Positions 3,587-24,603 are shown, numbered from the stretch's first letter. The stretch: DNA of 64,000 nucleotides from an uncultured Candidatus Binatia bacterium (GCA_965218305.1 OZ244617.1:2270061-2334060); one strand, 5' to 3'. Notes: generated from the letters alone by a model not told the origin. Program-made: numbers and translations.

Positions 3587-4582
3587 ATGAGACGAACCCG
3601 TTTTCTGGCACGCTTCGGCGTGGTTGCCATCGTAGCGGCCGCACTGGCGCTGGGCGTATCGAACTCCGTTCCGGCAGCCGACAAGCTGGTCGACAAGATT
3701 CACTTCCTCATTCCCGGCGGCGCCGGCGGCGGCTGGGACGGTACCGCACGCGGAACCGGCGAGGCGCTGACCAAGTCCGGCATCGTCGGCTCGGCCTCGT
3801 ACGAGAACATGTCCGGCGGCGGCGGCGGCAAGGCCATCGGCTTCCTCATCGAGAACGCCGCCTCCAACCATGGCACGTTGATGGTCAACTCGACCCCCAT
3901 CGTCATTCGCTCGCTGGTGGGGCGTTTCCCCCACAACTTCCGCGATCTGACGATGGTCGCCGGCACCATCGGCGACTACGCGGCGATCATCACGGGCAAG
4001 AACAGCCCCTACAAGAACTTCTCGGACGTGGTTGCGGCCTACAAGAAGAATCCGCGCAAGGTATCGGTCGGGGGCGGTTCGGTACCGGGTGGAATGGACC
4101 ATCTGGTTGCCGCGTTGGCCTTCCAGGCAGCAGGCGCCGATCCGACCAAGGTCAAGTACATTCCCTATGATGCCGGCGGCAAGCTGAATGCAGCGATCCT
4201 GTCCGGCGAAGTGGCTGCAGGTTCAACCGGCTTCTCCGAGGCGGTAGGGCTCGCAAAGGCCGGGGAGATGCGCATTCTCGCGGTAACCTCCGCAAAGCGT
4301 GTCCCGGCGTTCAAGGACGCGCCGACCCTCAAGGAGCAGGGATACGACGCGACGTTCGTCAACTGGCGCGGCTTCTTCGCCGCTCCCGGATTGCCGAAGG
4401 ACAAGGCGGACATGTACCGCAAGGCCCTCGCCGCGATGTATGCCACCCCCGAGTGGAAGGCCGTACGCGACCGCAACGGCTGGGTCGACATTCACAATTC
4501 CGGGAAGGATTTCACCGCATTCCTGGAGAACCAGGAAAAGGTGATCAAGGCCCTGATGCAGAAGCTCGGTTTCCTGAAGTAG
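3587..4582 (+). CDS. tctC: Tripartite tricarboxylate transporter substrate-binding protein (Bug/TctC)
   Basis: PGGAGGGWDGTAR, ENMSGGGG, PTLKEQG, NWRGFF motifs; AGGAGG RBS. Confidence 0.93.
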   Translation: MRRTRFLARFGVVAIVAAALALGVSNSVPAADKLVDKIHFLIPGGAGGGWDGTARGTGEALTKSGIVGSASYENMSGGGGGKAIGFLIENAASNHGTLMVNSTPIVIRSLVGRFPHNFRDLTMVAGTIGDYAAIITGKNSPYKNFSDVVAAYKKNPRKVSVGGGSVPGGMDHLVAALAFQAAGADPTKVKYIPYDAGGKLNAAILSGEVAAGSTGFSEAVGLAKAGEMRILAVTSAKRVPAFKDAPTLKEQGYDATFVNWRGFFAAPGLPKDKADMYRKALAAMYATPEWKAVRDRNGWVDIHNSGKDFTAFLENQEKVIKALMQKLGFLK

Positions 4583-4593
4583 CGACCAACATC

Positions 4594-4623
4594 ATCCGGG
4601 GCGTCCGCCGGGGCGCCCCGGAT
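4594..4623 (+). terminator. 13-bp stem hairpin after tctC
   Basis: ATCCGGGGCGTCC-GCCG-GGGCGCCCCGGAT. Confidence 0.55.
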
Positions 4624-4662
4624 TGCCTTCCTGTTGCGTGAGGGACGGGCAGGAGCGGATTC

Positions 4663-5148
4663 GTGACCCTCGAACGCGCGATCGCCTTGATATTCGTCGC
4701 CGTCTGTCTGGTCTATGGATACACGGCCTTTGTGGTCATGGAGGCCGGGCTGCTTCCGTTCGAGCTCAACATGACCTTTCTGCCCAACGTACTACCCAAA
4801 TGGCTGAGCGTACTGGGCGTGGTGGTGGGGGTCGCCGTGCTCATCCAGAGCGGTCCTGCGGCCGATGGGGAAACCGACCCGGACGGCATCGAGTTCCGAA
4901 ACCTGGGTCAGTACAAGCTCGGTCAGGCAATCCTGCTGCTGATCCTCATGATCGCCTATGCGCTCTTGCTTCGACCCGTCGGCTTCCTCACCGCAACGAC
5001 ACTCTTCCTGGTCCTGGGAGCCGTGACTCTCGGCGAGCGGCGCTACGTCGTCCTCGTTCCGGTTTCCGTGCTCTCGGCGTTCCTGATCTGGTATCTGGTG
5101 CAGGAAGTGCTCGGCATCTTCCTGCGCCCCTGGCCCTGGTTCTTCTGA
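4663..5148 (+). CDS. tctB: Tripartite tricarboxylate transporter small permease
   Basis: About 4-5 TM segments, LGIFLRP C-terminus, located between tctC and tctA. Confidence 0.9.
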   Translation: MTLERAIALIFVAVCLVYGYTAFVVMEAGLLPFELNMTFLPNVLPKWLSVLGVVVGVAVLIQSGPAADGETDPDGIEFRNLGQYKLGQAILLLILMIAYALLLRPVGFLTATTLFLVLGAVTLGERRYVVLVPVSVLSAFLIWYLVQEVLGIFLRPWPWFF

Positions 5149-6674
5149 TGCTTGAAGGAATCCTCACCGGTCTGTCGACCGCCCTGAGTTTTCAGAACCT
5201 CTTCATGGTCATCGCCGGGTGCCTGATCGGTACCTTCATCGGCATGCTGCCGGGCCTCGGCCCCATGTCGATCATCGCCATCATGATCCCGATCGCCATA
5301 CAGATCGGCGATCCGGCGGCCGCGCTGATTCTGCTGGCGGGTGTGTACTACGGCGCCATCTTCGGCGGTTCCACCTCGTCCATCCTGATCAATGCGCCGG
5401 GCGTGGCCGGTACGGTCGCCACGGCGTTCGACGGTTATCCGCTGGCGCGCCAGGGACAGGCCGGGAAGGCTCTGACCATTGCCGCCATCGCCTCCTTCTC
5501 CGGGGGCACCATCGGCGCCATCCTGCTGATGGGGTTCGCACCCGGGCTAGCCACCGTCGCCCTGTTGTTCCATTCCGCGGAATATTTCGCGCTGATGGTC
5601 GTGGGGCTTTCGGCCATCGCCGCCTTCGCGGGCGAGGGCCAGGTTGCCAAGGCGCTGATGATGACGGTCCTCGGCGTGATGCTGGCCACCGTTGGCGAAA
5701 GCGCATTGTTCAACGCCCCGCGCTTTACCTTCGGCATTCTGGACCTGCAGAGCGGAATAAGCTTCATTACCCTGGCCATGGCGCTTTTCGCCTTGCCGGA
5801 GGCTTTGTATCTGGTCCTCAACCCCAAGCGTTCGGAACGAGACGGCGAGGACGGCGGCAGGATCTCAAACCTGCGGATCACGCGCAGCGAGGCCAAAGAG
5901 ATCGCTCCCGTTATCGGCCGCCAATCGCTCCAGGGCTTCTTCATCGGGGTGATGCCCGGCGCCGGAGCGACCATCGCATCGTTCCTTGGCTATGCCGTCG
6001 AACGCAACATCGCCAAGGGGGAGGATAGGGCCAAGTTCGGAAAGGGGTCGATCAAGGGTCTGGCCGCGCCGGAAACCGCCAACAACGCGGCCTGCACGGG
6101 TTCTTTCGTGCCGCTGCTGACACTGGGTATTCCCGGATCCGGGACCACCGCGATCCTGTTGGGCGCCTTGATCGCGCTGAACGTACAACCCGGCCCGCGC
6201 CTGATGGTCGACAATCCCTCCATCTTCTGGGCCGTGATCATCTCCATGTACATCGGCAACATCGTGCTGCTGGTCCTCAACCTGCCGCTGATCCCCTACA
6301 TCGCCAAGCTCCTGGAGATCCCTCGGACCTACCTCATCCCGTTCATCCTGTTCTTCACCATGATGGGCAGCTACATCGGCCAGAACAATGCCACCGAGCT
6401 GGTGATGCTCACCGGCATGGGAATCGCGGCCACGATCATGCGCATGGCGGGTTTCCCGCTGGCGCCGATGCTGATCGGGTTCATTCTCGGACCGCTGCTG
6501 GAGGACAACTTCGCCCGCGCCATGAATCTGACCGACGGCATCAGCTTCATGTGGGAACGGCCGATGACCGCGGGATTGCTGCTCTTTGCCATCGTCCTTA
6601 TCTTTCTGCCTTCCATCCGGGCAGGTCTCGCCATGTTTGGAGGAGGAGGAAAGGGTGCCTCCGAAGGTGCCTGA
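5148..6674 (+). CDS. tctA: Tripartite tricarboxylate transporter large permease
   Basis: GMLPGLG, YYGAIFGGSTSSILINAPG, APETANNA motifs; TGATG coupling to tctB. Confidence 0.95.
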   Translation: MLEGILTGLSTALSFQNLFMVIAGCLIGTFIGMLPGLGPMSIIAIMIPIAIQIGDPAAALILLAGVYYGAIFGGSTSSILINAPGVAGTVATAFDGYPLARQGQAGKALTIAAIASFSGGTIGAILLMGFAPGLATVALLFHSAEYFALMVVGLSAIAAFAGEGQVAKALMMTVLGVMLATVGESALFNAPRFTFGILDLQSGISFITLAMALFALPEALYLVLNPKRSERDGEDGGRISNLRITRSEAKEIAPVIGRQSLQGFFIGVMPGAGATIASFLGYAVERNIAKGEDRAKFGKGSIKGLAAPETANNAACTGSFVPLLTLGIPGSGTTAILLGALIALNVQPGPRLMVDNPSIFWAVIISMYIGNIVLLVLNLPLIPYIAKLLEIPRTYLIPFILFFTMMGSYIGQNNATELVMLTGMGIAATIMRMAGFPLAPMLIGFILGPLLEDNFARAMNLTDGISFMWERPMTAGLLLFAIVLIFLPSIRAGLAMFGGGGKGASEGA

Positions 6675-15393: not shown

Positions 15394-17453
15394 CCCATCT
15401 TTAACACGGGTTTTTAAAACTAGTTATTATTCGGTGGGTTAGCGGGGAATAATTTGGTGTGTGGCACTACATTTCGACAGTTTAAGGTATTCAAGCGATC
15501 AATTTGGTGACACCACCGGGGGCGGGGTCGAGATCGAGAGCGCTGTAGATCTTGAGTTGGCGTTGCTCGGCACGGGTGGCCTTGCGCACGTGCAGGGTGC
15601 GACCGTCCTTTCGGCGGAAGGAGGCGGTGACACGGTGCTGGCCTTCGAGGATACGGCGCAAAGTGGTCCAACTCGCGTTCTCTCCATGTTCGGCGAGGCG
15701 CCTGCGGATGGTCTGGACCAGTTGGTAGGCGATGACGGTGATGAACAGGTGTCCGTCGGAGCGGTTCTGCTTTTTGTGGAAGATGGGGCGGAGGCCGAGT
15801 TCGGACTTGAGAGAGCGGAACACGGCTTCCAGATCGGTGAGCATGGTGTAAGTGCGCCACAAGGTCTGTGGATCCCAGTCGTGGACATTGGAGCGCAGAC
15901 AGTAGACACCCGGATGGGTGAGCATGGAGCCGGCAAGGGGCTTGGGCTTCCAGGTGACGGCCACTGCCTTTCGGCTGTGGGGGTCGGCGACGACGTCCAC
16001 GGTGTAATGCTGCCCGGCGCCGCGGCAGCGCTCCTGGATCCGCCCGATCCGCTGCCAGACAGAGTCGAGCCCCTTGCGGGTGCGGGGCCGGGACAGCCCC
16101 TCGTGGAGCTTTCGCAACTCGCTCTCGAAGCGCTCGGCGAAGCGTCTGGCGATCCCTTCCTCCTTTTTGGCGCGCTCCTCGGAATAACAGTACAGCCGCA
16201 CCTCGCCTCGGTCCTCATCCACCTCCTTGTGCAGATGAACCTTGTGGTGCGACCGGGTCTCGATGGCGATGGACCGCTCGGGGTCGAAGCGGCGGGTGCG
16301 TTGGCGGCTGACCACCAGATAACGGTAGCCGTTGTCACGCAACCAGGCCACGTTGTCCTCGGTGGCAATCCCCGCATCCATCACCACCAGGGCGTCGCCG
16401 GGCGCGTGCAGGGCCTTGAGCATCGGCTCCAGCGTCTTGTCTTCGTCCGCCCTGCCGGCAAACACTTCGGAGCGGCGCACGAAACCCGAACCGTCCAGCA
16501 CCAGCCCCAGGGTCAGCAGCGCACAGTCGCTGCGCTGCTCTTTCGAGTGCCCGCGCTGGGCCTTGGGCTGGTCTTTGGCCTCGCCTTCGAAAAACGTGTT
16601 GGTAAGGTCGTACAGCGTCACCGTGTGACCCAGACCGAACAACTCCGTCACCTGCTCGAACAGGTGCTTCTCGATGGCCTCCCGATGAGCCATCAAAGCA
16701 TCCGACACACGGTAAAGACGCATCACGCTCATGGCCTCGAAGTCCACCTCCAGCAACTCCCCCAGCCCGCTGCGCTCACACAGCCAGCGCCAACTCGCCC
16801 TCTCCGACCCCGGCTGCCCCATCCGCCCGATGATCGACCCCACCGCCACCGCCCGTTGCCGGCCGTTGAACCCCAGCCCCTCCAGCAAACCCCTTAGACC
16901 CAGCCTCTCCATCGCCCACAGCCCCACATGCTCCACCCCCACCGTCCGCGGCCGCGCCAACTCCAGCGACTCCACGTCCACCGTTTGCAGATCCGGGCCT
17001 CCCGCCGCTACCTCAGGCCCCCGGTGCACCAGTTGCAGGGCTATCCGCTGCGCTTCCCGTTCAACCTCATCCGGACAGTCCAGCTCTACCAGCACCTCCT
17101 GGCGCTCCAGCAACTGCTCGATCCGACTGCACAACACCGCCCAATGCTCCGTTGCTACCGCAAACTCACTGCCGAGATTGAGCAGCGTGCGCTGCCGCAC
17201 CCGCTCCCCGCTACGCTCGGAACGCACGAGTCGGTAGGAGTGGTAGACCTTGCCGCCTTCGGCACTGCGCGTCCTGGTGCGCCGGATGAACATGGAGGGA
17301 GGATAGCAGAGGGGGAGAAGGAATGCAAGAGAATATTAACAAGTATGGCACTACATTGTGCCAGCCAAAACATCAACTCAATGAAATCAATACCTTAGCC
17401 CACTCCCCACCCCACAATTTACCGAAATCCCCCTCTCTTGTGTTAAAGATGGG
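15394..17453 (-). mobile_element. IS1634-family insertion sequence
   Basis: 14-bp terminal inverted repeats CCCATCTTTAACAC / GTGTTAAAGATGGG enclosing one DDE transposase. Confidence 0.9.
15491..17293 (-). CDS. IS1634-family DDE transposase
   Basis: RQRTLLNLG, LYDLTNTFFEG, RGHSKEQRSD, VMDAG, EAVFRSLKSELGLRPIFH motifs; 600 aa. Confidence 0.93.
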   Translation of the reverse strand: MFIRRTRTRSAEGGKVYHSYRLVRSERSGERVRQRTLLNLGSEFAVATEHWAVLCSRIEQLLERQEVLVELDCPDEVEREAQRIALQLVHRGPEVAAGGPDLQTVDVESLELARPRTVGVEHVGLWAMERLGLRGLLEGLGFNGRQRAVAVGSIIGRMGQPGSERASWRWLCERSGLGELLEVDFEAMSVMRLYRVSDALMAHREAIEKHLFEQVTELFGLGHTVTLYDLTNTFFEGEAKDQPKAQRGHSKEQRSDCALLTLGLVLDGSGFVRRSEVFAGRADEDKTLEPMLKALHAPGDALVVMDAGIATEDNVAWLRDNGYRYLVVSRQRTRRFDPERSIAIETRSHHKVHLHKEVDEDRGEVRLYCYSEERAKKEEGIARRFAERFESELRKLHEGLSRPRTRKGLDSVWQRIGRIQERCRGAGQHYTVDVVADPHSRKAVAVTWKPKPLAGSMLTHPGVYCLRSNVHDWDPQTLWRTYTMLTDLEAVFRSLKSELGLRPIFHKKQNRSDGHLFITVIAYQLVQTIRRRLAEHGENASWTTLRRILEGQHRVTASFRRKDGRTLHVRKATRAEQRQLKIYSALDLDPAPGGVTKLIA

Positions 17454-17586: not shown

Positions 17587-19092
17587 ATGTTCCGCTTCTC
17601 CCCCAACCCCAACAGCGCCCATCGCATTCACTGGATCGATTGGGGTCAGGCCGCCTTTGATCGCGCGCGCTCCGAGAAAAAACCGGTGTTGCTCTGCCTG
17701 AGCGCGTTCTGGTGCGGCATCTGTCAGCGCATGGATGAGACCACCTTCTCCGACACCGAGACCATCGCGCTTTTGAACGCGTACTTCGTCCCGGTCCGTG
17801 TGGAGGACGCCCAGCGGCCGGACATCGACGTGCGCTACAACCGGAACGGCTGGCCCACCCTCGTGTTCCTGAGCGCCGAGGGCGACTACCTGGCGAGCGT
17901 CAACTACCTGTCGCCCCGTGACTTCAACGACGTCCTGGTGCGGGTCCACGTCGGTTACCCGGAGCGCGTACCCGCCGGGGCGTCGGCTCCTCCGGCCTCT
18001 CCCCCAACCGACACCCCCGAGCTTCGGCCGGGAACGGCGGACGAGATCGCCGGGATCGTCTGGAACCTCGCGGACCCCATGCACGGCGGCTACGAAGCGG
18101 ACCGAAAGTTTCCCCACTGCGAGGCCAACGAGTTCCTGTTGCGGCATCATGCGGGCACCGGCAACGCGCGTTACCTCAACCATGTGCGGCTCACCCTCTA
18201 CCGCATGCACCAGAGCAAGACCCATGACCCGGAAGGCGGTTTCTTTCGCTACTCATCGAAGCCGGACTGGAGCGAGCCTCACCACGAGAAACTCCTGTCC
18301 GACCACGCCGGCCTGCTGGACAACGCCCTGCACGTGTTCGAGCTTACCGGGGAATCCTTTTTCCGGGAGTTGGCGGAAGAGATCCTGGACTACCTGGACC
18401 GCGGGTTTCGCGACCCGGCCCAGCCGTACTTCCACGGCTGCCGCGACTACATCCGGATCACACCCGGCCGGGACACGCCCCCGGGCTCCGTGCTGCACAA
18501 GAACCGGGGCATGTTCTCCATCACCGATCCCTGGATGTACACCGACGCCAATGCCCGCACGGTTTCCGCCTGCCTGAGAGCCGCCGGAACCCTTGAGCGC
18601 GAGGACTGCAAGGAACGCGCTTTGGAGACGCTGCGGTTCCTGCTGGACCATTGCTGGGACGGTTCCCGCGGCATGGCCCACTACCTGGACGGCGCGCCCC
18701 GGTTGCGCGGACTCCTCACGGATCAGGTCCTCATGGGACGCGCCCTGACGGACGGGTTCGACGCCACCGGCGAACCGGCCCTCCTCGAACATGCCGAAGC
18801 ACTGGCGGGATTCATCCGGGCCAACTTGAGCAATCCGGCAGGCGGCTTCTTCGACATTGCCGAGAAAGGACCCGCATTCCTCAACTATCCCCTGACCCTG
18901 GTCACCGAAAACGGCGCCGCCGCGCGCTTCTTCCTGAAGCTGCACGACCTCACCGGGAAGCCGGAATACCACGACGCCGCCCTGTGGGCGCTCAAGTGCC
19001 ATCACGGAGACCTGACGGACCACGGGGTCCACGCGGCGGAGTACGGCACGGCGCTGGCCACCTACGGTGGAGCGGCAAAGTCCAATGAATGA
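17587..19092 (+). CDS. Thioredoxin-domain (DUF255/YyaL/SSP411-like) protein
   Basis: IHWIDW, WCGICQRMDETTF, VRVEDAQRPDID, GWPTLVFL, GGFFRYS...W..PH.EK. Confidence 0.88.
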   Translation: MFRFSPNPNSAHRIHWIDWGQAAFDRARSEKKPVLLCLSAFWCGICQRMDETTFSDTETIALLNAYFVPVRVEDAQRPDIDVRYNRNGWPTLVFLSAEGDYLASVNYLSPRDFNDVLVRVHVGYPERVPAGASAPPASPPTDTPELRPGTADEIAGIVWNLADPMHGGYEADRKFPHCEANEFLLRHHAGTGNARYLNHVRLTLYRMHQSKTHDPEGGFFRYSSKPDWSEPHHEKLLSDHAGLLDNALHVFELTGESFFRELAEEILDYLDRGFRDPAQPYFHGCRDYIRITPGRDTPPGSVLHKNRGMFSITDPWMYTDANARTVSACLRAAGTLEREDCKERALETLRFLLDHCWDGSRGMAHYLDGAPRLRGLLTDQVLMGRALTDGFDATGEPALLEHAEALAGFIRANLSNPAGGFFDIAEKGPAFLNYPLTLVTENGAAARFFLKLHDLTGKPEYHDAALWALKCHHGDLTDHGVHAAEYGTALATYGGAAKSNE

Positions 19093-19191
19093 AGGCCCGC
19101 CAACGTTGCCCTGTTCTCGGCGCTGCCGCTTTGCCATTGCCGCGGGAATGTGGGATCATTTGCCCGACTGTGTCCAGATGGAGGCCACCGC

Positions 19192-20472
19192 GTGAATCTG
19201 ACACTGGCGTACCACCCGGTGCGAACCCTTCGTTTCGGCGCTTCTACCCGACTCGACGGAACCACCCTCGACATCGACTCGGATCAGCTTCGCGGGTTGC
19301 TGCTCGAAGACGAGGCCCTCAGCGATGTAACCTTCGAGCTCGTCGCGCCCGGTGAGGACTGCCGGGCCGGACCGGTGTTCGACATCATCGAGCCCAGGGC
19401 CAAGGCGTCCGGATCGAGTCCCGACTTCCCGGGGATCCTGGGACCTCCCTTGACGGCGGGCATGGGCACCACCCACGTGCTGTCGGGCATGACGGTCACG
19501 GTCCTGGACGAGCACGCCGCGGGCGGATCCAGAGGCTCCATCGGCCGGGTCCTGGAGATGACGGGACCGGCGGCGGAGGGGTCGTCGTACTCCGGGCTGC
19601 ACCACCTCGTCGTCATCCCCCGCATGGCCCCGGACAAGGACGGCCCCGCCGCCCAGAGGGCCAAGCGGGTAGCCGGACTCAAGACCGCGGTCTATCTCGC
19701 TCAGGCGGCGGCTTCGCAGCCGCCCTCCGAAAGCCGCCCTCTCGGGCCTGTGAATCCCGGACCGCCGGGACGCCCGGATCTGCCCCGGGTGGCCTACGTG
19801 GGACAGATCTTCTCCCGCCAGCGGCAGGCCGAGCTGAACGAGCCGGTGCTCTACGGGCTGAACACCGCCGGGATGCTGCCGGTGCTGCTGCATCCGGACG
19901 AGTGGCTGGACGGCGCGGTGGTGACATCCTACTACACCTCCATGGGGGGCGCGGAGACCTACCTCTACCAGAACCATCCCATCATCACCGAGCTTTACCG
20001 GAGACACCACGCCGGCGAGCTGAACTTCGTCGGCACGGTGGCGAGCATTGCAGGGTCGGACAACGCGGACCGCGACCGGAACTGCCGCACCGCCGCCTCC
20101 CTGGTGCAATGGGCGCTGAATGCCGATGCCGCCGTGCTCACCAAGTACGGCGGCGGCGTGCCTCACGCCGATCTGGCGGAGACCGCGCGGCTGCTGGAGA
20201 CCCAGGGCATTCGCACGTCGGTCATGGTTTCGGACGTGTCGCGCGACCGCCGGGTGGAGTCGGCGTTGCTGTTCAACTTCCCGGAGGTGAACGCCATCGT
20301 CTACGGCGGGGGCAACGACACGCGGTGGCAAGTGCCACCGGCCGGACGGGTGATCGCCGCGACGCCGGCCATCGGCGAGTTGCTGGCCGGGGTCCGGGAA
20401 CTGGGGGCCATGAACGTGGCGGGCGTCACCAACCAGCAAGGCGCGTCGAGGCTGCGGGCGGTGGTCTACTGA
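19192..20472 (+). CDS. grdE: Glycine/sarcosine/betaine reductase component B alpha/beta proprotein (GrdE-like)
   Basis: DIIEPRAK, G.THVL, LHPDEWLDGAVV, YQNHPII.ELY, ELNFVG motifs; upstream of grdB-like gene. Confidence 0.8.
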   Translation: MNLTLAYHPVRTLRFGASTRLDGTTLDIDSDQLRGLLLEDEALSDVTFELVAPGEDCRAGPVFDIIEPRAKASGSSPDFPGILGPPLTAGMGTTHVLSGMTVTVLDEHAAGGSRGSIGRVLEMTGPAAEGSSYSGLHHLVVIPRMAPDKDGPAAQRAKRVAGLKTAVYLAQAAASQPPSESRPLGPVNPGPPGRPDLPRVAYVGQIFSRQRQAELNEPVLYGLNTAGMLPVLLHPDEWLDGAVVTSYYTSMGGAETYLYQNHPIITELYRRHHAGELNFVGTVASIAGSDNADRDRNCRTAASLVQWALNADAAVLTKYGGGVPHADLAETARLLETQGIRTSVMVSDVSRDRRVESALLFNFPEVNAIVYGGGNDTRWQVPPAGRVIAATPAIGELLAGVRELGAMNVAGVTNQQGASRLRAVVY

Positions 20473-20553
20473 CGAGGCCGTGCGAAGCCGTGGACACGCC
20501 ACCGCGCACGGAATGACAGGGCAACGAACATCTCGAACAGGGAGGCCGTAACC

Positions 20554-21840
20554 ATGAGGATCGTTCACTACCTCAACCAGTTCTTCGGGGGGATCGGCGG
20601 CGAGGAGCAGGCCGGGAGCGCGCTTCGGGAAACGGAAAGCGCCGTCGGTCCGGGCCGTCTTCTCGAGCAGACCCTCGCCGACGGGGCCACCGTCGTCAAG
20701 ACCTTGATCTGCGGCGACAACTACGCCGTAGAGCACCAGGAGGAGCTGACGGCCGCGGTCCTGGAACACGTCCGGAACGCCCGTGCGGACCTGTTCGTGG
20801 CCGGCCCGTGCTTTGACGCCGGCCGCTACGGCATGGCCGCCGGCGCCCTGTGCAGCGCGGTACAGAAGGAGATCGGCATCCCCGTCCTTACCGCCATGCA
20901 CGAGGAGAACCCGGGGGTAGACCTCTATCGGGAGGGCCTCTATATCGTCGACTCCGGGCGGAATGCGGCCAACATGAAACAGGTCGTCCAACGCATGGCC
21001 GGGCTGGCCCGGAAGCTGTCGGCCGAAGAGTCCATCGGCCTGCCGCGGGACGAGGGCTACCTGACCCGGGGGCTGATACGGGATCAGTTCGTGGACAAGT
21101 CCTCGGCCGAGCGGCTGGTGGACATGGTGCTGGCCAAGGTCCGGGAGCAGCCGTTCGACACCGAGATGCCGGTCACCTCCTTCCAGCCCGTGGCCAAGCC
21201 CAGGGGCGTGGACGACCTGTCCAAGGCCACCGTGATGCTCATCACCGACGGCGGCCTGGTTCCCAAGGGCAATCCGGACGCCATCGAAGGGATGGCGGCC
21301 ACCAAGTGGGGCGCCTACGACATCTCCAGTGCCGACGACCTCGCGGGCGAGGACTACGAGATCTCCCACGGCGGCTACGACCCCCGCTTCGTTCAGGCCG
21401 ACCCGGACCGCCTGGTGCCCCTCGACGCCCTGAGACAACTGGAGAGGGAAGGCGCGGTGGGCAAGATCCACGGGGAGTTCCTCTCCACCTCCGGCCTGTC
21501 CAACCCTCTTTCGAACACTCGCCGGCTGGGCCGGGAGATGGCGGAGAAGGTGAAGCGCGAGGGGGTCGACGCCGTCATCCTCACCTCCACGTGAGGCACC
21601 AGCACTCGCAGCGGCGCTGCGATCACCACCGAGCTCGAAAAAGCCGGCGTCCCCGTCGTGCAGATGACCTCCGCCCTTCCCATCGCCAAGATGGTGGGCT
21701 CCAACCGCGTCGTGCTGGGAGCCGGCATCGTCCACGTGACCGGAGACGCGAGCCTGCCGGCGGACGAGGAAAAGGCGCTAAGGCGCAAGCTGGTTCAGGA
21801 GGCGCTGGATTCGCTGAGGGCGGAAGGGGGTACCGGGTAG
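20554..21840 (+). CDS. grdB: Glycine/betaine/sarcosine reductase selenoprotein B (GrdB-like); UGA at 21592-21594 read as Sec
   Basis: MRIVHYLNQFFGGIGGEE, AGPCFDAGRYG, HGGYD, DAVILTST-UGA-GTSTRSG; the same frame continues to TAG 21840 with GrdB-like C-terminus (EKAGVPVVQM...VGSNRVV). Confidence 0.9.
21606..21622 (+). promoter_or_regulatory. Putative bacterial SECIS hairpin
   Basis: TCGCAGC-GGC-GCTGCGA perfect 7-bp stem starting 11 nt after the UGA, G in the loop. Confidence 0.75.
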
Positions 21841-22081
21841 GCGCCCGTGCAGGTATAAGGAAACGCTAAACGCTTCAGACCTCTTGTGCGGGCATGGCCC
21901 CGCATCGTCACCTTGTAGTTGATTCGTTAAACTGTTCGCTGAGCGTGTGAAGCCGTTCGACCGCCCGGCGACTCGACGCCGACGTAGCCGCCGGGCGGCA
22001 CACTGGCCGGGGGGCGCCCGTAACGAGCCGGTGTCAAGGGCGTCCAAGCTCGGACCGCGCCCGAAGGAAGGAGAGCGACCG

Positions 22082-23443
22082 ATGTTGAACAATCTCGAGG
22101 TCACCAACTTCAAGGCGTGGCGCAATCTGGAAATGCAATTCGGCAAGGTGACCGGCCTTTTTGGCACAAACAGTTCCGGTAAGAGCAGCGTGCTCCAGTT
22201 CCTGCTGCTGCTGAAGCAGACGAAGAATGCCACGGACCGGGGTCTCGTCCTGGACTTCGGTGGACCGAAAGAGCTGGTAAATCTGGGGACCTACCAAGCC
22301 ATTGTACATCGAGGCGACCAGGCAGCGGACATCGACTGGACGCTGGATTGGAAGCTCCCGGAGCCTCTCAAGGTCTACGACCCGAGTGGGCGTCGCAAGG
22401 ACGTACTCTTCACGGGAAACAGTCTGCAAGAGAGCTCTCGGGTAGGATTGAAGGGTTCACATCTGTCGGCGCGCCATGTGAAATACAGGTTTGCCGACTC
22501 CGTTTTCGCCATCGAGCCGAAGACGGAGAACTCCAGTGAGTTCGAGCTCAGGTCAGACGGTCCCCAATCGCTGAGATTCATTCGTAATCCAGGACGAGGC
22601 TGGGCATTGCCCGGGCCGGCCAAAACCCACCTTTTCCCCGACCAAGCTCGTACCTACTATCAAAACACCAGCTTTCTGAGCGACTTCGAAGCCGAGTACG
22701 AAGCTCTGATGGACAGGATATTCTATCTTGGCCCTCTCCGAGAGCATCCGCAGCGCGAGTACCGCTGGTCGGGGGCCAGGCCCGCTGACGTGGGGCCAAG
22801 CGGAGAACACACCGTCGATGCCATCCTGGCAGCTACCGCGCAAGACGAAATGCGGAATTTGGCGCCGCGCAAGCGATACATGAAATTTCAGGAAATGATC
22901 GCCCATTGGTTGGGCGAACTGCGCATGATCCATTCGTTCCAGATCAAGGAAATCGGGTCTGGGACAAACCTCTACCAGGCCTGCGTGCAAACGGATCAAA
23001 ACAGCCCCGAGACGATGTTGACGGACGTCGGTTTTGGCGTCTCCCAGGTTCTGCCTGTCCTGGTGCTCCTCTACTATGTGCCGGAGGGCTCCATCGTGTT
23101 GATGGAACAACCCGAGATTCACCTGCATCCATCCGTCCAAAGCGAACTGGCGGACGTGATGCTCGCTGTAGCCCAGCATCGCCAAGTGCAGATTATCGTG
23201 GAAAGCCACAGCGAGCATTTGCTGCGACGCTTTCAGCGACGCGCGGCCGAAGAAAGCGTGTCGTCGTCGGATTTGAAGCTCTATTTCGTTCGGACAAGCC
23301 GTGGTGCAGCCGAATTGAACGACCTCGAGCTCAATGAGTGGGGTGAGATAGAGAACTGGCCGGACAAATTCTTTGGAGATGAAATGGGCGAGATTGCCAC
23401 GATCAGCAAAATGTCCCTGGAACGACGGATCAAGGCCTCGTGA
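22082..23443 (+). CDS. ABC-type ATPase (AAA_15/AAA_21 with DUF3696-like tail)
   Basis: NFKAW, Walker A GTNSSGKS, YLGPLR, DVGFGVSQVLP signature, MEQPEIHLHP Walker B/D-loop, ESHSE H-loop, NWPDKFF tail; AAGGAAGGAG RBS. Confidence 0.9.
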   Translation: MLNNLEVTNFKAWRNLEMQFGKVTGLFGTNSSGKSSVLQFLLLLKQTKNATDRGLVLDFGGPKELVNLGTYQAIVHRGDQAADIDWTLDWKLPEPLKVYDPSGRRKDVLFTGNSLQESSRVGLKGSHLSARHVKYRFADSVFAIEPKTENSSEFELRSDGPQSLRFIRNPGRGWALPGPAKTHLFPDQARTYYQNTSFLSDFEAEYEALMDRIFYLGPLREHPQREYRWSGARPADVGPSGEHTVDAILAATAQDEMRNLAPRKRYMKFQEMIAHWLGELRMIHSFQIKEIGSGTNLYQACVQTDQNSPETMLTDVGFGVSQVLPVLVLLYYVPEGSIVLMEQPEIHLHPSVQSELADVMLAVAQHRQVQIIVESHSEHLLRRFQRRAAEESVSSSDLKLYFVRTSRGAAELNDLELNEWGEIENWPDKFFGDEMGEIATISKMSLERRIKAS

Positions 23444-23928
23444 TGAAGCCCTATGTCGTAGACACCAACGTTGCCATCGCGGCGAACGGAAGGAGCACAC
23501 ACGCGGACCTCCAATGCCAACTGGCGTGTGTAGAAAAACTGGAGGACGTTTGCGGTCAGCAAGTTGTTGTAGTTGACGACGGCGGTCTCATATTCGACGA
23601 ATACAAAGGAAGCCTAAACTTTGCAGGCGCCCCGGGAGTGGGCGACAAGTTCTTCAAGCATGTTTTCGATCATGGGTACGACAAAAACCGCGTGCGTCGA
23701 GTTTTGATTACGCCAAGCAGCGATGATCGCCGGGGCTTCGAGGAACTGCCGGAAAATGATCTGGATAAATCCGATCACAAGTTTCTTGCCACGGCGCTGG
23801 TCGCGGGGGCCGCTATCCTCAACGCAACAGACAGCGACTGGAGTGAGCAGGAAGCGCTGACGAAGCACTTGGAGGTGACGGTACGACAGCTTTGTCCACA
23901 GCATGCTTCAAAAATCGGCAGTTCGTAG
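23440..23928 (+). CDS. PIN-domain-like protein (putative ribonuclease)
   Basis: N-terminal VVDTNV, mid DEY, D.SD.KFLATA, ATDSDW acidic residues; GTGA overlap with ATPase stop. Confidence 0.7.
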   Translation: MMKPYVVDTNVAIAANGRSTHADLQCQLACVEKLEDVCGQQVVVVDDGGLIFDEYKGSLNFAGAPGVGDKFFKHVFDHGYDKNRVRRVLITPSSDDRRGFEELPENDLDKSDHKFLATALVAGAAILNATDSDWSEQEALTKHLEVTVRQLCPQHASKIGSS

Positions 23929-23955
23929 ATGATTGTGGTTTCAACGACAAGTCGC

Positions 23956-24603
23956 ATGCTCAAGTATCCGAGAACCCCCTACTGGCCGCAGTCGCCAGCG
24001 CGGGCCGCGGGCGACGAAACCCTTGCCGATCCAACTCGGTTCGCCGGCTCGCCGGTAGTCGTCACCGAAAAGCTCGACGGCGGCAACACGCTCCTGCACA
24101 TCGGCGAGGTGTACGGACGTAGCGTCTCCGCGCCCTCGATCGGTAAATGGATGGCCATGGTCAGAAAGCACCATGCGTGGAAGGTGTTGGAGCCGGACAT
24201 CTTTCTCTACGGCGAAGACATCTACGGCGTACACAGCATCGAGTACGACCCCGTGCCGGAGAACGAGACATTCTATGCCTTTGCGCTTCGTTTCGCGGAC
24301 GGGTCGTTCTCCTCGTTCCAGGCACTAGTGAAATACGCCCAGGAACACGAGACCCCGGTGGTTCCAGTGCTGTACGAGGGTGTGTTCCGGTCAGTGGACG
24401 AGATCCAGGATTTCGTGAGGCATGCTCACACGGAGCCATCCGCGCTTGGCGGCGCAAGAGAAGGCGTGGTCATACGGCTGGCACGGGAATTTCCGGCCAG
24501 CGACTTCCACCTCAACGTCTGCAAGAGCGTTCGCGAGGGCCATGTCCAGTCCGATGAACACTGGTCGAAGGGTTGGAAGGCCTGCCGCATTGCGCAAGCG
24601 TAG
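23956..24603 (+). CDS. ATP-dependent RNA ligase (Rnl2-like nucleotidyltransferase domain)
   Basis: KYPRTP, motif I TEKLDGGN, LYGE, FYAF, EGVVIR, KSV; alternative ATG at 23929 abuts the PIN stop. Confidence 0.85.
   Translation: MLKYPRTPYWPQSPARAAGDETLADPTRFAGSPVVVTEKLDGGNTLLHIGEVYGRSVSAPSIGKWMAMVRKHHAWKVLEPDIFLYGEDIYGVHSIEYDPVPENETFYAFALRFADGSFSSFQALVKYAQEHETPVVPVLYEGVFRSVDEIQDFVRHAHTEPSALGGAREGVVIRLAREFPASDFHLNVCKSVREGHVQSDEHWSKGWKACRIAQA

Follow-up and report, generated by a model that had tools for sequence, protein, structure and literature searches.

We analysed a 64,000-nucleotide stretch from an uncultured Candidatus Binatia bacterium (GCA_965218305.1 OZ244617.1:2270061-2334060; hereafter the window) and found a gene, grdB', that is likely to encode an intact, selenocysteine (Sec)-containing selenoprotein B subunit of a Grd-type reductase. 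This subunit would feed GrdA and GrdC, and its vicinal thiols would be either dispensable or provided in trans. A first-pass annotation had read two open reading frames (ORFs), 20554-21594 and 21658-21840, as one grdB-like frame split by a TGA, and had noted serines where GrdB proteins carry two cysteines after Sec. Both observations held. A single plus-strand frame spans the two ORFs, its sole internal TGA lies at 21592-21594, and translation with TGA as U places Sec at residue 347. Judged from its sequence, grdB' is a genuine selenoprotein gene of the GrdB family that falls in none of the family's characterised members. It comprises the following features.

20554-21840, plus strand: GrdB-family selenoprotein B gene (grdB'), 428 codons, Sec347, TAG stop at 21838-21840.
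21592-21594, plus strand: UGA predicted to be read as selenocysteine (U347), at the family's Sec column and followed by a frame under purifying selection.
21607-21621, plus strand: hairpin of the selenocysteine insertion sequence (SECIS) type, CGCAGC / GGC loop / GCUGCG, identified by folding, covariation and RNAalifold.
20540-20545, plus strand: Shine-Dalgarno-like GGGAGG, 8 nucleotides (nt) 5' of the grdB' ATG, read from the sequence.

Family models support the proposal that grdB' is read through its UGA. TIGR01918 (glycine/betaine/sarcosine/D-proline reductase selenoprotein B) matches residues 2-424 of 428 at 484.1 bits (cut-off 65.45), an end-to-end alignment that runs through the 81 residues 3' of the TGA, and PF07355 matches residues 1-346 at 446.5 bits. 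The product scores below the equivalog cut-offs for glycine reductase GrdB (TIGR01917, 443 vs 602.2), sarcosine GrdF (NF040794, 475.6 vs 800) and betaine GrdH (NF040795, 444 vs 775). Around Sec it reads ...GVDAVILTST-U-GTSTRSGAAITTELEK..., with U-G-T-S-T-R-S instead of the UxxCxxC motif; the Sec position is kept as TGA, and both serine codons are AGC (21601-21603 at Sec+3 and 21610-21612 at Sec+6). A PDB sequence search with the product returned no matches at E up to 0.01. Foldseek comparison of its AF2 model (pLDDT 90) with the PDB gave generic two-domain alpha/beta matches (TM ~0.2) to periplasmic binding proteins and GT-B folds, a weak resemblance of the two-Rossmann-domain type that is uninformative on function.

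The frame downstream of the TGA is conserved as coding sequence. Orthologues with at least 65% identity occur in 33 of 41 genomes searched (own genome, genus and order); all 36 rows contain exactly one TGA, and the surrounding peptide is STUGTSTRSGAAI in 30 of 30 loci retrieved. Alignment of homologues at the Sec site covered 151 GrdB-family loci, every one of which has TGA at the family's Sec column. Across 75 loci of the clade sharing the Ser-Ser motif, nucleotide diversity at codon positions 1/2/3 is.141/.062/.457 in the 75 codons 3' of the TGA and.154/.084/.491 in the 75 codons 5' of it. None of these loci has a stop codon within the 75 codons 3' of the TGA, and the post-UGA part is, if anything, better conserved than the N-terminal rest of the protein (mean majority frequency.865 vs.80). 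Together, these patterns indicate that the downstream frame is translated; decay of this frame, the sign that would have spoken against a selenoprotein, was looked for in the 75 loci and not seen.

If the TGA were instead a true stop, grdB' would encode a protein of 346 residues, either decaying or naturally truncated, and what follows the TGA would be a remnant ORF. Public databases appear to favour this view: of the 120 best-matching database proteins, not one extends past the TGA or covers more than 81% of the query, and an excerpt of PMC6778437 treats a homologue without UxxCxxC as a likely pseudogene. We find this explanation hardly credible. Gene callers end proteins at every UGA, which explains the database truncation, while the codon-position pattern is alike on either side of an uninterrupted frame, the family model reaches residue 424 and the hairpin 3' of the UGA covaries.

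That hairpin had been described as a perfect 7-bp stem-loop starting 11 nt after the UGA. Minimum free energy and centroid folds return this structure here (21606-21612 with 21616-21622, GGC loop), but the seventh, outer T-A pair is not conserved (column 21 is T in 52 of 68 distinct clade rows). The conserved core is 6 bp, 21607-21612 with 21616-21621, beginning 12 nt 3' of the UGA. We rejected fold stability as evidence for a SECIS because it is at chance level (z = 0.04), so the case for the hairpin rests on conservation and covariation. We aligned 105 distinct 63-nt stretches around the TGA from the Ser-Ser clade, paralogue clades of related genomes and three more distant loci. Columns 22-27 form standard pairs with columns 31-36 in 630 of 630 cells. 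Compensatory changes on both sides occur at pair 25-33 (AU 83, UA 19, GC 2, UG 1) and pair 24-34 (CG 99, UA 5, UG 1). The covariation score was matched by none of 500 shuffles, pairing collapses when the 3' partner is slid, and RNAalifold independently predicts the same six pairs.

The hairpin also bears out the suggestion that RNA and protein constraints overlap, since the second serine codon lies in its 5' arm. Column 25 is the first base of the Sec+6 codon (AGC Ser, UGC Cys or GGC Gly), and column 33, the synonymous third base of an alanine codon, follows it as U, A or C; AGC(Ser)..GCU thus stands against UGC(Cys)..GCA. Third-codon sites within the stem are frozen in 67-68 of 68 distinct Ser-Ser rows. 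In the same rows, flanking third-codon diversity is.39-.67 at columns 12, 15, 21, 42, 45 and 48 and lower at columns 18 and 39 (.06 and.19). The loop is GGN, with G28 and G29 invariant and C, T or A as the third base; a small apical loop with a guanosine is described as a common bacterial SECIS feature in the excerpted text of PMC1088965. The element thus has the structural marks of a bacterial SECIS: a hairpin shortly 3' of the UGA, a small G-bearing loop and retention in homologues. We regard it as a well-supported SECIS and predict that it binds SelB.

A search for selA, selB, selD and tRNA-Sec in the host genome (4.25 Mb, 64.5% G+C, 97% complete) recovered all four. The three genes are clustered at C1:3639771-3644070, and the tRNA-Sec scores 73 bits with anticodon tca; the Sec machinery of the host is complete. 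Host GrdA and two GrdB paralogues each contain one TGA. The in-frame stop of grdB' almost certainly encodes Sec, as far as gene content, frame and hairpin can tell. The locus is also represented in RNA libraries. Assembled contigs of one study extend over the complete pair formed by grdB' and the gene directly upstream (grdE'); two of them, from two runs, bridge the TGA (21179-21827 and 21436-21719), which is unchanged among the rows listed. RNA runs of a second study (X5, X6) gave patchy, low-depth contigs, none of those listed spanning the whole TGA-hairpin region. Elsewhere in the genome, selD (C1:3639771-3640697, L010) has its own in-frame TGA and is a Sec-containing selenophosphate synthetase. 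A weak TIGR01918 match at C1:1969914-1970300 (L024; 27.6 bits, model positions 280-406, one in-frame TGA) has small counterparts in six related genomes and is possibly another short PrdB-like selenoprotein.

We next consider how widely the Ser-Ser motif is shared. Scanning one genome per species gave 79 loci. U-G-T-S-T-R-S-G is present in 76 of them, at 61-99% identity, on records labelled Binatia, 'delta proteobacterium', SAR202/Dehalococcoidia, Chloroflexota and a few others. We then tallied the residues at Sec+3/Sec+6 in 123 distinct read-through proteins, a sample centred on relatives of the host genome: S/S in 75 proteins, C/C in 23, C/S in 17, S/C in 4, G/S in 2, and S/G and C/G in 1 each. 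The S/S state is invariant in its 75 distinct proteins, down to 61% identity. On a quick, midpoint-rooted FastTree tree, six changes are enough to explain these seven states. All S/S rows fall together on one side of a branch with support 100; their sister group consists of the S/C and S/G rows (support 92), and the C/C rows come next, among them bona fide clostridial GrdB and GrdH. The host genome itself holds three states: S/S (grdB'), C/C (C1:3557894-3559156) and C/S (C1:1683198-1684499). As the tree reads, UxxSxxS is a fixed, clade-defining character reached stepwise, neither a private oddity nor decay. The exchange of cysteine for serine is therefore real and fixed, as first noted, but it is not peculiar to this gene: it defines a clade whose sister clades carry other mixes of Cys, Ser and Gly. 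One Dehalococcoidia-labelled contig (L106) carries two Ser-Ser-type grdB' copies on opposite strands, 4001-5281 (+) and ~5521-5583 (-), the second reading ...GAAVT... past the motif.

To our knowledge, what Sec and the adjacent CxxC do in selenoprotein B has not been established, and we know of no available structure. A large natural clade that keeps Sec while both cysteines are replaced stepwise (C/C, S/C, S/G, S/S) supplies natural variants for probing the role of those cysteines. Excerpts of PMC13188914 and PMC6778437 present UxxCxxC as the motif conserved in GrdB, GrdF and GrdH and credit it to Wagner et al. 1999. The first-pass annotation had counted commonness of UxxSxxS among characterised reductases as a point against its reading. 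One characterised relative, FarB of fluoroacetate reductase, reported to lack CxxC in an excerpt of PMC10838667, sets a precedent. We found no mention of the string 'UxxSxxS' in the literature searched, and among the literature matches listed, none joins Binatia, Binatota or SAR202 with a Grd term.

Two genes upstream of grdB' bear on its function.

19150-20472, plus strand: GrdE/GrdI-like subunit (PF09338; grdE'), 247.7 bits, starting at GTG 19150 or at a GTG 14 codons further in.
17587-19092, plus strand: DUF255/thioredoxin-like protein, ~501 aa, matching PF03190 Thioredox_DsbH at E=5.6e-22.

A PF09338 gene lies directly 5' of grdB' in 74 of 79 loci, and the window locus has an adjacent subunit of the GrdE/GrdG/GrdI type. 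This partner scores far below the models for GrdG (NF040793, 175.6 vs 780) and FarE (NF053623, 142.3 vs 675). To locate the pyruvoyl site we used a bona fide GrdE (L193) from a classic trxB-trxA-grdE-grdA-grdB-grdC-grdD operon, whose GrdB passes TIGR01917 at 731 bits. Its ..SGN-C245-VSA-C249.. agrees in position with the pyruvoyl peptide of C. difficile, mapped to aa 242-266 in an excerpt of PMC9908766. A clostridial partner protein (L136) was dropped as a GrdE reference because its GrdB-family gene is GrdH by NCBIfam, making the partner GrdI. Neither the window partner nor the host's other three GrdE-like proteins has a cysteine at the columns of C245 and C249, and none of the cysteine columns conserved among 62 partner orthologues falls at the pyruvoyl site. 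The window partner thus lacks the Asn-Cys cleavage site of a pyruvoyl proprotein, which points to an enzyme of the GrdI/FarE 'no Schiff base' type. FarE, like GrdI, is reported without pyruvoyl cysteines in the part of PMC10838667 concerned with them, and by analogy with both, E'/B' would bind its substrate without a Schiff base. The host's other GrdE-like genes lie at C1:3556628-3557863 (L026), 1684544-1685812 (L028) and 3779825-3781006 (L027), the last without an adjoining GrdB-family gene.

The DUF255 protein combines an N-terminal Trx fold bearing WC43-G-I-C46 with an alpha/alpha-barrel-like part, and C43 and C46 are invariant in 19 of 19 orthologues. Homologues (42-94% identity) lie within 4 kb of grdE'-grdB' in 48 of 76 clade loci and in 41 of the 51 that are fully flanked, arranged co-directionally upstream (25), divergently (18) or downstream (5); they are present at none of three non-clade loci. 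The host has the window copy and one 31%-identical paralogue. Because the DUF255 gene sits where the classic operon has trxA/trxB, we propose it as a dedicated thiol reductant; as a candidate redox partner of the Ser-Ser enzyme it is nominated by linkage. DUF255 is a widespread domain of unknown function, and this recurrent linkage suggests a first function that can be tested. The clade also has a cysteine of its own. Cys86, in 'AGPCF', is invariant in 100% of 65 distinct orthologues and occurs in 11 of 11 clade rows vs 0 of 11 other rows (alignment A3), other clades reading 'GPAF'. The AF2 model (pTM.59) comprises two alpha/beta domains; Cys86 and Sec347 are each located in one of them, at a turn leading from a strand into a helix.

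These features bear on whether grdB' might simply encode protein B of an ordinary betaine-type (or glycine or sarcosine) reductase, in which cysteine drifted neutrally to serine with substrate and mechanism unchanged. Betaine reductase GrdI is also reported without pyruvoyl cysteines (PMC10838667, in excerpt), truncated members of the clade are annotated as 'betaine reductase' or 'glycine reductase' in some JGI records, and GrdA and GrdC are present in the genome. We nevertheless regard this as unlikely. The product scores far under all three equivalog cut-offs, whereas clostridial GrdH passes its own (848.7); the invariance of S/S in 75 distinct proteins of a single clade with support 100 argues against drift; and the clade has its own invariant Cys86 and its own DUF255 neighbour. 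The first-pass suggestion of different chemistry or a different substrate gains indirect support from the sub-threshold GrdB, GrdF and GrdH scores and from the partner without pyruvoyl cysteines, and we infer that either may apply. The substrate is probably neither glycine nor sarcosine, and the Ser-Ser branch probably handles a different substrate or is recycled differently.

Where, then, would such an enzyme deliver its product? The host encodes GrdA (with its TGA) and GrdC (495.5 bits) side by side at C1:3864254-3866240. In three sister-family genomes (G025, G029 and G036), grdC and grdA lie immediately 5' of the E'-B' pair, and in the one-contig genome G025, the clade member they adjoin is the only GrdB-family match. 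A Chloroflexota locus has grdA/grdC downstream of the pair. Within 4 kb of clade loci, grdA and grdC are each found in 6 of 76 cases, and GrdA was found in 11 of 11 clade-bearing genomes tested. The grdC-grdA linkage and the presence of GrdA in all 11 genomes make it more likely that the enzyme serves as protein B of a Grd-type complex than that it acts alone. We rejected the idea that an 871-aa ORF holding GrdC is a GrdD-GrdC fusion. NCBIfam matches nothing in its first 394 residues at E up to 1e-20, and this N-terminal part overlaps a real opposite-strand amidohydrolase gene, so it is most likely a spurious extension.

A self-contained E'/B' enzyme would resemble D-proline reductase PrdA/PrdB, working without GrdA and GrdC and receiving thiols directly from the DUF255 protein. 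In the host, the pair indeed adjoins the DUF255 gene and is far from grdC-grdA, DUF255 linkage (48 of 76 loci) exceeds that of grdA (6 of 76), and GrdD is missing. Against this stand the contiguous grdC-grdA-grdE'-grdB' arrangement in sister lineages, the retention of GrdA and GrdC in G025 beside its only GrdB-family match, and a PrdB model score of 83.6 vs a cut-off of 300. We judge a self-contained enzyme quite improbable.

We therefore favour a protein B that cooperates with GrdA and GrdC. SelB and Sec-tRNA(Sec), directed by the GC-rich hairpin 12 nt past UGA 21592-21594, would insert Sec347 and allow the last 81 residues to be made. GrdB' would pair with the upstream GrdE/GrdI-like subunit to form a substrate-specific 'protein B', and E'/B' would pass a carboxymethyl-type group to the host's single selenoprotein GrdA and then to GrdC, a hand-over suggested by the grdC-grdA-grdE'-grdB' operons of sister lineages. 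The protective or resolving thiols of the missing cysteines would be either unnecessary for the substrate or supplied in trans; the linked DUF255 protein with its invariant CxxC and the clade-specific Cys86 are speculative candidates.

Several observations weigh against this reading. The host grdC-grdA genes lie 1.57 Mb from the grdE'-grdB' pair. GrdD (NF040747) has no matches in the 97%-complete host genome, leaving the textbook acetyl phosphate route incomplete and the end product uncertain; the textbook acetyl-phosphate-forming step may be missing in the host or done differently. Among the 51 fully flanked loci, 10 have no DUF255 gene within 4 kb, two of them of the same genus. A further locus (L133; U-G-T-S-T-R-G, neither cysteine after Sec) lacks Cys86, so Cys86 is no general substitute for missing thiols. 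The hairpin is short (6 bp, 3-nt loop) and its 76-nt stretch is as stable as chance predicts, with 100 of 200 shuffles equally stable. The RNA evidence consists of assembled contigs whose strand and ends cannot be judged and in which DNA carry-over is possible, and the predicted Sec insertion at UGA 21592-21594 has indirect support.

A bolder version joins the Ser-Ser branch, the pyruvoyl-less partner, Cys86 and the dedicated DUF255 protein into a distinct Grd-type selenoenzyme. Its Sec would act without vicinal thiols and be recycled by DUF255, its substrate would be other than glycine, sarcosine or betaine, and, GrdD being missing, no acetyl phosphate would be made. We offer this tentatively, as the less likely form of the proposal. 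If true, a distinct selenoenzyme would be carried widely by uncultured bacteria of soil, groundwater, the sea and sponges (Binatia, SAR202), and recycling of Sec in trans would be the first function assigned to DUF255. Grd-type selenoenzymes appear to be common outside fermentative anaerobes. Because the public protein records examined for the clade all end at the UGA, selenium use and the pathway are under-counted in these phyla.

The wider neighbourhood contains genes of other kinds. The DUF255 gene is immediately preceded by a minus-strand ORF of 600 aa at 15491-17293, whose product has a DDE_Tnp_1 transposase domain (E=2.2e-10); beside this ORF is an AT-rich junction at ~17330-17400, and an insertion sequence probably interrupts the upstream side of the module. 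Directly 3' of grdB', at 21947-24603 on the plus strand, lie an ATPase (AAA_15/AAA_21/DUF3696, with weak PtuA/MADS3-like matches), a 162-aa ORF without a family and an RNA-ligase-domain protein. Elsewhere in the genus, such an ATPase and such a ligase are again encoded 3' of grdB' (9 and 12 loci), and the cluster looks like a defence-type module unrelated to the reductase. In loci from outside the genus, genes that often follow the pair encode Rieske/ring-hydroxylating oxygenase subunits (7-8 loci) or xanthine-dehydrogenase-family [2Fe-2S] and FAD subunits (13-14 loci); outside-genus neighbours include L119 5913-7698 (-), and L113 7276-7839 and L129 8079-8948 (+). An SBP_bac_5 solute-binding protein sometimes precedes the pair (10 loci). 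The oxygenase, dehydrogenase and SBP_bac_5 neighbours may be hints to where the substrate originates.

The closest known systems include GrdB, GrdF and GrdH (TIGR01918, PF07355) of Peptoclostridium acidaminophilum, Acetoanaerobium sticklandii and Clostridioides difficile. GrdB' shares their fold family with an end-to-end alignment, Sec at the same column in a ..LTST-U-G.. context, an in-frame SECIS hairpin formed by R-x-G-A-x codons, an adjoining PF09338 partner, and GrdA and GrdC in the genome. It differs from them in its UxxSxxS motif, the clade's Cys86 and scores beneath all three equivalog cut-offs. Unlike the glycine and sarcosine systems, the window partner lacks both pyruvoyl-site cysteines; unlike the classic Grd operon, the pair is flanked by a DUF255 gene and not trxA/trxB, and no GrdD was found in the genome. 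The hosts differ as well: GrdB, GrdF and GrdH come from amino-acid-fermenting Firmicutes, whereas the clade resides in uncultured Binatia, SAR202 and similar lineages.

Three further systems frame the comparison. FarE/FarB of Cloacibacillus porcorum, as described in an excerpt of PMC10838667, pairs a GrdB-like selenoprotein without CxxC with a partner without pyruvoyl cysteines, a likeness by description only, and is predicted to feed GrdA and protein C, as we propose for E'/B'. Unlike that system, the neighbours scanned here include no radical-SAM (farC) or MFS antiporter (farA) gene, and the partner misses the FarE cut-off. With PrdB of D-proline reductase, distant homology extends across the C-terminal half and takes in the Sec region (TIGR04483, 83.6 bits), but grdB' stays far under that model's threshold; PrdB is also half as large, and PrdA, unlike the window partner, is made as a pyruvoyl proprotein. 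Betaine reductase GrdI/GrdH resembles E'/B' in having a partner that is no pyruvoyl proprotein and in a likely substrate class, X-CH2-COO- bound without a Schiff base; GrdH keeps UxxCxxC (L136, L137), whereas GrdB' carries UxxSxxS.

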